A DNA stretch of 11,381 nucleotides from a virus (IMGVR_UViG_2703718769_000013:1-11381), one strand, 5' to 3'. Counted from the first letter of the stretch, positions 4,364 to 9,219 are shown. Notes: generated by a model from the letters alone, not told the origin. Numbers and translations are program-made.

Positions 4364-4533
4364 TATCGCGTCCTCAACAATGAATTTTGTGATGCGGTGC
4401 CTGGTGCCTCCAGGTGACGTTAACCAGTTAACAATTAACGCCGGATACAGAGAATCCACCCATAACACTGTTTTTGGTTTTAACTGTTCCGCGTGCGCTG
4501 AGCCGCATTCACCGCATCACAAAATTCACTTTT

Positions 4534-4591
4534 AAAAAAGGGCGGCAGAGCAGTCACGGAGTAAAACTGATACCGCCAAATGTCACCAGAA
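4534..4591 (-). ncRNA. dicF: DicF small regulatory RNA (Hfq-dependent sRNA repressing ftsZ)
   Basis: Minus strand reads TTCTGGTGACATTTGGCGGTATCAGTTTTACTCCGTGACTGCTCTGCCGCCCTTTTTT, nearly identical to K-12 DicF as I remember it, ending in a GC stem plus U-tract. Lies about 170 nt upstream of dicB, the conserved arrangement. Ends are approximate (a few nt). Confidence 0.8.
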
Positions 4592-6804: not shown

Positions 6805-7059
6805 ATGAACCAGAAAACACTTGAAGATGTAATCAAAACTGTTCGCGTTTCTGTTGTGGCCGACGTTTGTGGTGTCAGCCAAAGAGCAATCTACAAATGG
6901 ATGGATAACGGAAAATTGCCTCGCACTGAATATACCGGCGAAACAAATTATGCTGAAAAAATCGCTCATGCATCAAACGGATTATTTTCTGCCGATGCAA
7001 TTTTAACTATTGGCAGAAATAAAACTACTACGAAAAAGCTGTTGGGAGTTGATTCATGA
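6805..7059 (+). CDS. Cro/DicC/YdaS-like small HTH regulator
   Basis: 84-aa protein from the ATG at 6805 (GAGGG Shine-Dalgarno). HTH region VADVCGVSQRAIYKWMDNGKLP typical of Cro/YdaS-type regulators. The upstream ATG at 6733 would leave only 7 bp between divergent genes. Stop overlaps the next start (ATGA at 7056-7059). Confidence 0.75.
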   Translation: MNQKTLEDVIKTVRVSVVADVCGVSQRAIYKWMDNGKLPRTEYTGETNYAEKIAHASNGLFSADAILTIGRNKTTTKKLLGVDS

Positions 7060-7481
7060 AAATCAAGCATGAGCACATCCGCATGGCGATGAATGCCTGG
7101 GCGCATCCGGACGGCGAAAAAGTTCCGGCAGCTGAAATAACCCGGGCTTATTTTGAACTGGGTATGACGTTTCCGGAACTGTACGACGATACTCATCCAG
7201 GCGCTCTGGGTCTTAATACCCAGAAGATTTTCCGCTGGGTAAAGAAAGATACTCCTGATGCCGTTGAAAAAATGCAGGCTCTGTTACCGGCGATCGAAAA
7301 GGCGATGCCGCCTTTGCTGGTGGCCCGTATGCGCAGCCACAGTTCTGAGTATTACCGTGAGATTGTCGAACGGAGGGATCGGTTGATGAAAGATGTCGAC
7401 GATTTTGTTGCGTCAGCGGTTGTTTTGTATGACCAGATGAATCGCGGCGGCCCGGCAGGAAATGCCGTGGTGATGCACTAA
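7056..7481 (+). CDS. YdaT-like protein (proposed CII-like regulator; historically annotated as a toxin)
   Basis: 141 aa, MKIKHEHI... N-terminus. Translationally coupled to the Cro-like gene; GGGAG Shine-Dalgarno. Same position as ydaT after ydaS in Rac-type prophages (family call from memory). Confidence 0.6.
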   Translation: MKIKHEHIRMAMNAWAHPDGEKVPAAEITRAYFELGMTFPELYDDTHPGALGLNTQKIFRWVKKDTPDAVEKMQALLPAIEKAMPPLLVARMRSHSSEYYREIVERRDRLMKDVDDFVASAVVLYDQMNRGGPAGNAVVMH

Positions 7482-7503
7482 AAGCACGGTGTTCGGGGGT
7501 TTT

Positions 7504-8472
7504 ATGAGCAGCAAGCTTCATGGTCTTGTCTGGGAAGGGTGCGCCTTCACCGGCATGATCTTATCCAGGGTGGCGGTTATGGCCCGTCTTGCAGACTACA
7601 GCAATGACGAGGGCGTGTCATGGCCTGCCATTGAAACTATCCGGCGTCAGATCGGTGCAAGAAGTGAATCCACCGTTAAATCTGCTATTGCAGAACTGGC
7701 GAAAGAGGGCTGGCTGACGAAGGAAGAGCGTAAGGTCGGTGGGCGTAACGTAAGCAATATCTATCGGCTTAATGTGGAAAAACTCGAAGCAGCTGCAACT
7801 GCGGCGCGTGAGGCATATAAACCGAAAAGAAAAATTATCCCGGCAAAAAATGACCCGTTAACAGTTAACCCGTCAAATATTGCCCCCTCAACGGTTGACC
7901 CGTCAAATGTTGATGGATCAACGGTTGATAAAAAACTGCGTATTAGGGGGGCGATGATTGACCCCGATCCGTCAGTATTAAAACCTGATCCGTCAGATAA
8001 AAGATCTTTTTGTCCGGACGTTTCACTGCCGGACGAAAAACGATCATCACCAGTTGAGCGATTTCTGGAGAAACACCCGGATGCGCATACCTGGAATGTA
8101 CCGAAGCGACAGTGGGGTACCCGTGAGGATGTCTCCTGTGCGCAGTGGATTTGGGGACGGGTTGTGGCGTTGTATGAACAGGCCGCCAGTGATGATGGTG
8201 AGGTGTCACGCCCCAGGGAACCTAACTGGACGACCTGGGCGAATGATGTGCGCATGATGCGTATGCTGGATGGACGTAGTCACCGACAGATTTGTGAAAT
8301 GTTTGGGCGTGTTCAACGGGATTCGTTCTGGGTAAAAAACATCATGAGTCCGGCAAAACTCCGGGAAAAATGGGATGAACTGGTTATTCGCCTGGGGCGT
8401 TCGCCCGCGCAGCGTTGCGTGAATCATATTTCTGAACCGGATACCGAAATTCCGCCGGGGTTCAGGGGGTAG
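7504..8472 (+). CDS. Replication initiation protein (lambda O analogue / replisome organiser) with N-terminal winged-helix domain
   Basis: About 322 aa from the ATG at 7504 (GGGGG upstream); the track starts at an in-frame GTG at 7489. N-terminal HTH-like region; internal DNA repeats that double as peptide repeats; located directly upstream of the DnaC-like loader. Confidence 0.65.
   Translation: MSSKLHGLVWEGCAFTGMILSRVAVMARLADYSNDEGVSWPAIETIRRQIGARSESTVKSAIAELAKEGWLTKEERKVGGRNVSNIYRLNVEKLEAAATAAREAYKPKRKIIPAKNDPLTVNPSNIAPSTVDPSNVDGSTVDKKLRIRGAMIDPDPSVLKPDPSDKRSFCPDVSLPDEKRSSPVERFLEKHPDAHTWNVPKRQWGTREDVSCAQWIWGRVVALYEQAASDDGEVSRPREPNWTTWANDVRMMRMLDGRSHRQICEMFGRVQRDSFWVKNIMSPAKLREKWDELVIRLGRSPAQRCVNHISEPDTEIPPGFRG
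7852..7999. repeat. Iteron-like direct repeats inside the O-like gene (candidate phage replication origin)
   Basis: Five copies of GAYCCGTYA (starting at 7852, 7867, 7897, 7966, 7987) plus two copies of near-palindromic TCAACGGTTGA (7888-7898, 7918-7928), followed by an A-rich stretch (7929-7937). This matches the lambda arrangement of the origin inside gene O. Confidence 0.5.
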
Positions 8473-8478
8473 CGCATC

Positions 8479-9219
8479 ATGAAAAACATTACGTCAGGTG
8501 GTGTTCTGGCAAGAGTCAGCAGATTTGTGCCGCAGGATGCAATCCATCCGTACCGTACGGTGTCGGAGTGGCGGGAATGGCAGCTTGCTGAAGGGCGTAA
8601 GCGAAGCGAGGAGGTTAATCGTCTGAATCATCAGACGCGGGTTGAAAAAATCATTAACCGCTCCGGTATCCAGCAGCTTCACCGGAAGTGTACGTTCGGT
8701 AACTACCGGGTGCAGAACGATGGTCAGCGCCATGCCCTGAGTCAGGCGAAATCCATTGCGGCAGAGCTGGAAGGCGGCTGTACGAATTTTGTTTTCAGTG
8801 GCAGGCCTGGCACAGGAAAAAACCACCTGGCGGCGGCTATTGGCAACCACCTTCTGGCGAAAGGTCGCAGTGTGATTGTGATAACAGTGGCGGATGTGAT
8901 GCTGGCGTTACATGGCAGCTACGACAACAAAAACTCGGGCGAAAAATTTTTGCAGGGATTGTGTGGCGTTGACCTGCTGGTACTGGATGAAATTGGCATG
9001 CAACGGGATACGCGTAATGAGCAGGTCACGCTGAATCAGATTGTTGACCGCAGAACGGCATCGTTACTCAGTGTGGGGATGCTGACAAATCTTAACCATG
9101 CAGCGATGAATACACTTCTCGGCGAGCGGGTGATGGACCGCATGTCCATGAACGGTGGTCGCTGGGTGACTTTTAACTGGGAGAGCTGGCGTCCGAACGT
9201 CAGCCAGCACAGGAACTGA
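8479..9219 (+). CDS. DnaC-like helicase loader (AAA+ ATPase, IstB/DnaC family)
   Basis: 246 aa with Walker [12 protein letters not shown] and Walker B LLVLDEIG; follows the O-like gene as in the lambda P / Rac ydaV position. Confidence 0.85.

Follow-up and report, generated by a model that had tools for sequence, protein, structure and literature searches.

A candidate replication origin inside the linker-coding part of a lambdoid prophage initiator gene

In phage lambda, the replication origin lies in the middle of gene O and consists of dyad-symmetric iterons and an AT-rich tract (PMC7466680). The locus described here raises the question of whether repeats in the middle of an O-like gene with a different DNA-binding domain have the same role. 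The gene (7504–8472, + strand; 322 residues plus stop codon) lies within a viral DNA stretch of 11,381 nucleotides (IMGVR_UViG_2703718769_000013:1-11381; the window below), and in its product a disordered linker joins a winged helix to a lambda-O-like C-terminal domain, which is followed by a short tail. An earlier reading of the sequence (the original prediction) took the repeats to be the likely replication origin, and on comparative grounds we arrive at the same view: we put the probability that this lambdoid prophage replicates from 7850–8013, inside the linker-coding part of the initiator gene, at roughly 80%.

We first consider the repeats themselves. The original prediction, whose coordinates were right to within 1–2 bases, had listed five copies of GAYCCGTYA; five copies are indeed present on the + strand, at 7852, 7867, 7897, 7966 and 7987, provided that the motif is relaxed to RAYCCGTYA, as only four are strictly GAY and the copy at 7867 reads AACCCGTCA. 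The whole window contains six matches to RAYCCGTYA compared with a shuffle mean of 0.64, and none of 200 shuffles reached six. The two near-palindromes of the original prediction, TCAACGGTTGA at 7888–7898 and 7918–7928 (7888–7928 overall, with TCAAATGTTGA at 7903–7913 between them), are both present but are perfect 5-1-5 palindromes of 11 bp. Tandem Repeats Finder returned a period of 15 bp and 5.2 copies over 7851–7928 (a period of 30 bp scores 89), and this array is the top-scoring tandem array of the window. The most economical description of the array, referred to as array A, is a 12-bp dyad with the consensus TTGAC-NN-GTCAA: with up to two mismatches to TTGACNNGTCAA allowed, five units (ATGACCCGTTAA, TTAACCCGTCAA, TTGCCCCCTCAA, TTGACCCGTCAA and TTGATGGATCAA) start at 7850, 7865, 7880, 7895 and 7910, in exact 15-bp phase, and span 7850–7921 as presumed iterons. 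The 11-bp palindromes exist because neighbouring dyads abut, and represent identical half-sites in the other register. The signal of array A is in its phasing and not in the number of dyads, because the dyad count in the whole window is at chance (7 compared with 6.07 expected, not significant), whereas the longest phased chain in 1000 first-order Markov simulations of the window, at any spacing of 10–30 bp, did not exceed 2, compared with 5 in array A.

Downstream of array A, the two remaining repeat copies form what we call the B boxes (GATCCGTCA; 7966–7974 and 7987–7995), which are 21 bp apart and each contain one GATC (Dam) site. An A-rich spacer (GATAAAAAACTGCGTATTAG, 7926–7945, ∼64–67% AT locally) separates them from array A. 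The A-rich tract of the original prediction is found within it, at 7926–7933 (GATAAAAAAC), but makes a weak candidate for an unwinding element and is poorly conserved; another tract lies at 7820–7850, and the maximum in 30-bp windows is 61–67% AT. An A6 tract occupies the spacer position in five phage homologues, and the Lys-Lys that it encodes is missing from many genome loci.

All repeats are in the frame of the open reading frame 7504–8472. The codons of array A are AAT GAC CCG TTA ACA / GTT AAC CCG TCA AAT / ATT GCC CCC TCA ACG / GTT GAC CCG TCA AAT / GTT GAT GGA TCA ACG, and the peptide reads DPLTV NPSNI APSTV DPSNV DGSTV ... DPDPSVLKPDPSD. An AlphaFold model of the initiator, made from an alignment of 30 homologues, predicts a winged helix at residues 1–105, a disordered linker at 108–177 (predicted local distance difference test score, pLDDT, 31–46), a confident helical domain at 180–300 and a disordered tail. 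Because array A and the B boxes fall within residues 108–177, the repeats encode part of a flexible linker between the DNA-binding and the lambda-O-like domains, which agrees with the DPS/NPS linker described in the original prediction.

To place the repeats in an evolutionary context, we compared the phage loci PhiR49_1, Klebsiella phage Kp4871-1, phiP27 and LLS and 80 genome loci, one per species, from Enterobacterales, in which the N-terminal domain is 52–78% identical to that of the window; an additional 80 homologues came from near-identical viral contigs. The original prediction was to be given up if the repeats were absent from homologues, and we found repeated units directly after the winged-helix domain in 81 of 81 intact Enterobacterales homologues. 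Under a strict criterion (TGA-N4-TCA with no more than one mismatch, and another unit at a distance of 15 bp), the linker of the 81 genes contains 398 units compared with 2 elsewhere; 79 of the 81 genes score, and the two that fail have visibly diverged units. The number of units per locus ranges from 2 to 11 and is typically 4–6. The units are of the type TTGA-SSSS-TCAA in the subfamily of the window (Erwinia, Mixta, Edwardsiella, Morganella and E. coli relatives), of the type TCTGAC-NN-GTCAAAA, with the peptide SDxSK, in a larger subfamily, and take the form of TCAGAATCTGA or CCAGAATCTGG boxes in a phiP27-like group; TGA-N4-TCA at a 15-bp period is common to all repeat types. Copy number is also polymorphic among close relatives, with 3–8 units in E. 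coli and Salmonella proteins (3 in P0005, 8 in P0036), one 15-bp unit fewer in an IMG/VR contig (L115, 315 residues), and one B box fewer in another such contig (L134) and in a protein (P0016).

The B boxes are similarly widespread, and each of the 81 homologues has both in a form that can be identified from peptide and codons. By a strict DNA pattern, 58 of 80 homologues have two, 18 have one and 4 have none. Their general form is GATCC(G/A)TCA, and their spacing is mostly 24 bp, 18 bp in the subfamily of the window and 21 bp in the window itself.

Importantly, the arrays are inherited together with the N-terminal domain. The initiators of phiP27 (L17) and LLS have only this domain in common with that of the window, and the PhiR49_1 initiator has another C-terminal domain, yet all keep TGA-N4-TCA arrays; conversely, lambda O has the C-terminal domain in common with the window initiator, yet its iterons are unrelated. 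Array and winged-helix domain are inherited as a pair across homologues with three different C-terminal domains, irrespective of which of these is present. The residues that separate the two repeat subfamilies include an insertion at 53–54, residues 59–60 (predicted third helix), and residues 73 and 83 (wing); because they reflect one phylogenetic split only, they lend weak support. As a separate observation, E. coli ECDA1023 (locus 1501–1734) lacks the repeat array and carries the first 79 residues of a homologous initiator, continued in the same frame by a terminase-like sequence; this looks like what a deletion has left behind, as with e14 ymfN.

Conservation of this kind might reside in the peptide or in the DNA, and four independent lines favour selection on the DNA and not on the peptide. 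First, codon choice was compared between the repeats and the N-terminal domain of the same genes, ignoring kinship among the genes. Of 681 serines in a D-x-S context, 586 (86%) are encoded by TCA, compared with 11% in the N-terminal domain; serine before aspartate is TCT in 231 of 281 cases compared with 9%; and lysine is AAA in 94% of cases in the repeats compared with 59%. In the subfamily of the window, codons at conserved residues are identical at 95% in the B-box segments and at 52% in the N-terminal domain. The aspartate of B box 1 is GAT in 81 of 81 homologues, whereas the invariant aspartates of the N-terminal domain are divided roughly equally between GAT (∼50%) and GAC; an invariant proline of that domain uses all four codons across homologues. 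Second, the dyad occurs in both orientations: in the subfamily of the window, 26 units of the TTGACCCCTCAA type encode DPS, DPP or NPS, and 18 units of the reverse-complement TTGAGGGGTCAA type, in the same arrays, encode EGS, KGS or EGL. Third, a related box occurs in two frames: phiP27 (∼1912–1972 of its locus) and Citrobacter sp. NCU1 (∼1909–1969) each contain TTT(G/C)ACCC(T/G)TCAGAWTCTG twice, 32 bp apart, and this 20-bp box, which is absent from the window, is read once as FDPSDSG and once as VLTLQNL. Fourth, the residues that vary do so in register with the dyad: position x of SDxSK, filled by P, A, T, G, V or R in the large subfamily, falls on the two central dyad bases, and in the subfamily of the window the serine position varies among S, P and L and the half-site YYAA is kept. 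Overall, it is close to certain that the repeats are a functional DNA element.

We next considered whether the position and surroundings of this element match those of known origins, using for comparison the lambda-type group (ori-lambda and the origins of 21, 82, phi80 gene 15 and the O genes of Shiga toxin (Stx) phages). Array A occupies codons 116–142 of its gene and the four lambda iterons occupy codons 116–145 of O, as the lambda-like position inside the gene in the original prediction had implied. In both cases, the repeats are dyad-symmetric and encode a flexible-linker peptide, the common C-terminal domain (41% identity) follows ∼50–60 codons after the repeats, and a helicase-loader gene comes next. 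The designation of the gene as O-like is also borne out. The full-length initiator matches phrog_391 'replication initiation O-like' (E 2.5e-104; protein 1–322, profile 1–298), and the C-terminal helical domain (∼residues 190–300, 8071–8403, + strand; pLDDT 86–95) is homologous to the C-terminal domains of lambda O and phi80 gp15. By BLASTP, residues 203–302 align with residues 188–277 of lambda O at 41% identity over 100 residues (E 1e-24), and tblastn matches of this domain include lambda, 21, phi80 gp15 and Stx phages. The adjacent gene (8479–9219, + strand), correctly described as DnaC-like in the original prediction, encodes a DnaC-type helicase loader (NCBIfam PRK12377, 469 bits; DnaC equivalog, 298 bits; Pfam IstB_IS21; phrog_50).

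At sequence level, the likeness to lambda does not extend to the DNA-binding half of the protein. The N-terminal part of the initiator gave no match to the O proteins of lambda, 21 or Stx phages or to phi80 gp15, and Pfam assigned to it not Phage_rep_O but HTH_36 (residues 25–71, 27.7 bits, cut-off 25), with DnaD_N below threshold. This winged-helix domain, the presumed origin binder (residues 1–105, 7504–7818, + strand), is placed by Foldseek closest to winged-helix DNA binders of the PadR/MarR/ArsR type, all E-values being 1e-3 or higher. The remaining differences from lambda are a 12-bp dyad every 15 bp compared with the 19-bp ATCCCTCAAAACGAGGGAT every 20–24 bp, two extra GATC boxes here compared with a 40-bp strongly AT-rich tract in lambda only, and a DnaC-type loader in place of lambda P. 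The comparison with lambdoid origins thus yields an equivalent position with a different repeat sequence and DNA-binding domain, and the arrangement is an expected one, an in-gene origin of the known lambda kind. Taken together, the constraint at the DNA level, the inheritance with the N-terminal domain and the lambda-like position make the origin assignment well supported, by comparison only.

Constraint at the DNA level indicates a function of the DNA but not which one, and the alternative that survives best is that the repeats are protein-binding DNA sites with a regulatory role and that the true origin is elsewhere. The sites might autoregulate or act as a roadblock to the replication operon transcript, titrate or handcuff the initiator, or bind a host factor. 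Consistent with such a role, no clear unwinding element adjoins the array, and the strictly conserved GATC of the B boxes could serve regulation instead of initiation. However, the replication module contains no other repeat array or origin-like feature to take the place of the array, which is the best tandem repeat of the window, and the array is positioned like ori-lambda relative to the common C-terminal domain. Further, iteron systems normally use identical sites for origin function and for control, and we consider a purely regulatory role unlikely. A scan for internal promoters gave 4 promoter-like sites compared with 3.3 expected, of which the one at 7861–7834 (− strand) scores 9/12.

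A second alternative, which we regard as very improbable, is that the constraint acts on the messenger RNA (mRNA), for instance if hairpins or rare codons made the ribosome pause after the first domain and before the second. The palindromes do fold well as a single strand (z = −3.87 compared with shuffles for single-stranded DNA of 7840–8015), and TCA and TCT are minority serine codons in these genes, but the Rfam scan of the repeat region gave no match above threshold, the inverted and other-frame units keep the duplex dyad and not the codons, dimeric DNA-binding proteins typically have sites with such a dyad pattern and exact 15-bp phasing, and the array co-varies with the DNA-binding domain. 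Least probable of all, and largely refuted here, is that the repeats are a low-complexity peptide linker of DPS/NPS pentapeptides generated by slippage with no function as DNA: although the region encodes a linker predicted to be disordered, varies by whole units as slippage would have it and keeps all array units in one frame, synonymous codons are fixed position by position in 81 diverged genes whose flanking domain is about half randomised, the two dyad orientations encode unrelated tripeptides, a related box is repeated in two frames, and the variable residues track the dyad centre (SDxSK) or spare the half-site (S/P/L).

Several observations weigh against the assignment of 7850–8013 as the origin. 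A strong AT-rich unwinding element was not found, the candidate stretches 7814–7850, 7904–7945 and 7974–8013 having only 61–67% AT, and in a stability profile of the window none of these AT-richest patches of the initiator gene ranks in the lowest ten for stability; their conservation is modest. The best candidate for an unwinding element, weakly assigned, is 7974–8013, which overlaps B box 2 and the third GATC at 8003; the family-averaged AT profile peaks at 65% directly after the last B box. The 15-bp spacing corresponds to ∼1.4 helical turns compared with ∼2 in lambda, so an O-some of lambda geometry is not expected. Units 2, 3 and 5 of the window depart from the consensus of close relatives, most of which keep it where units 2 and 3 of the window are substituted, so the copy in the window may be a weakened origin. 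In addition, the codon statistics take a flanking domain of the same genes as the control and disregard kinship, and no publication on these repeats, or on binding or origin activity in this family, was found in open-access text. Literature searches for the repeat motif strings, for SfII and SfIV origins and for reviews of replication modules likewise gave nothing specific.

If 7850–8013 is the origin, we infer the following course for binding by the initiator, for unwinding and its place, and for helicase recruitment via the C-terminal parts of the protein. The N-terminal winged-helix domain (residues 1–105) would bind the five TTGAC-NN-GTCAA dyads of the 15-bp array and, probably, the two downstream GATCCGTCA boxes as well. 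The bound initiator would form an O-some-like oligomeric complex and destabilise neighbouring, moderately AT-rich DNA. The lambda-O-like C-terminal domain, which presumably contacts the helicase-loader complex, and the DnaT-like tail would then recruit host DnaB, to be loaded by the adjacent DnaC-type protein.

The tail (8410–8469, + strand; ...EPDTEIPPGFRG) resembles the C-terminal 20 residues of both host DnaT and K-12 YdaU: 13 of 19 residues are identical to the YdaU tail, and it matches NCBIfam DnaT at positions 159–179. A PDB sequence search with the initiator returned only DnaT chains, via the tail (E 0.009–0.03). An IP(A/E/P)GFRG ending is also seen on the PhiR49_1 and LLS initiators, whose C-terminal domains differ. 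From its sequence, the tail looks like a portable peptide, possibly one that contacts the DnaB-DnaC complex. K-12 YdaU was considered as a homologue of the initiator and rejected, the alignment being limited to the last 19 residues.

The least expected features of the locus are the universally conserved GATCs of the B boxes and the tight 15-bp packing of array A, with which control by methylation or a complex of unusual geometry would be compatible. Hemimethylation-based licensing is known from oriC and P1 oriR. It is conceivable, though we think it rather doubtful, that the B-box GATCs make the origin sensitive to Dam methylation or SeqA, with licensing by hemimethylation, and that the 15-bp array supports an initiator-DNA filament unlike the lambda O-some. 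Five GATC sites occur in the 130 bp of 7916–8045 (7916, 7966, 7987, 8003 and 8042). This cluster was rejected as an anomaly of the window, where the GATC total is below expectation; a similar cluster occurs at 1817–1959, and the sole noteworthy point is that the two B-box GATCs are conserved throughout the family.

We also compared the locus with other systems. The iterons of theta plasmids (Rep_3/RepA-type: pPS10, F, R6K and P1) are direct repeats of ∼17–22 bp in helical phase, located outside the rep gene and usually accompanied by DnaA boxes. The likeness lies in multiple tandem sites bound by winged-helix domains (binding being predicted here) and in variable copy number, and GATC sites inside the origin are shared with P1 and oriC. 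With 12-bp units, 15-bp spacing, a location inside the gene and DnaA matches at chance, array A is not a Rep_3 iteron origin. A DnaA box (TTTTCCACA, 7773–7781, − strand) 70 bp upstream of the array was considered and rejected: matches in the window are at chance, and as the box is absent from 80 of 80 other homologues, it is probably a chance match.

Closer in arrangement are P22 and L, whose gene 18 contains repeats of its own (TGTCCAACGGA, six imperfect 11-bp repeats) that are taken as origins (PMC8022706). Going by the published description, these too are short initiator-specific repeats inside a lambdoid initiator gene, designated an origin by comparison, but the repeat and the initiator family are different and the partner is the DnaB-type helicase gp12. 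The Rac prophage, for which an active origin, oriJ, has been reported (PMC3945230), has the same order of repressor, cro-like gene, YdaT-like gene, initiator (YdaU) and DnaC-like loader (YdaV), and YdaU ends in the tail IPPGFRG; K-12 YdaU is, however, a DUF1376 protein otherwise dissimilar to the window initiator, and the repeats in the middle of its gene are four copies of AAGCAGATGTTCAA. These lie at 4472–4563 of the locus, at ∼codons 118–148, with spacings of 33, 33 and 12 bp, and are candidate iterons of Rac oriJ.

The wider setting of the gene is that of a prophage. The window represents the early region of a lambdoid prophage, and in the closest genome (98.8% identity over 7400–8600) the prophage is next to potC. 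In that genome the genes run in the order integrase, excisionase, 3'-5' exonuclease, dicB, ydfA/ydfB, cI-like repressor, cro-like gene, YdaT-family gene, 'helix-turn-helix domain-containing protein' (the initiator), 'ATP-binding protein' and DUF1627. In the window, the YdaT-family gene (Pfam YdaT_toxin, 7056–7481) is directly upstream of the initiator gene, in the position of cII in lambda. The − strand at 4540–4591 holds a gene for full-length DicF antisense RNA (Rfam RF00039, 77 bits), near dicB as in the dic operon of the Qin prophage. About a third of complete E. coli genomes contain a match to the segment, and the 783 database homologues of the initiator are mostly labelled just 'helix-turn-helix domain-containing protein'.

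The understanding of how such origins work is unchanged by these results. The inverted and other-frame units provide unusually clean natural experiments on a coding stretch shaped by a DNA-binding site. For the Enterobacterales, the results supply a concrete origin candidate for a very common but barely annotated prophage replication module, and the consensus TGA-N4-TCA every 15 bp, together with the GATCCGTCA boxes, may be used to annotate origins in these prophages, including the Shigella serotype-converting phages SfII and SfIV, and phiP27.

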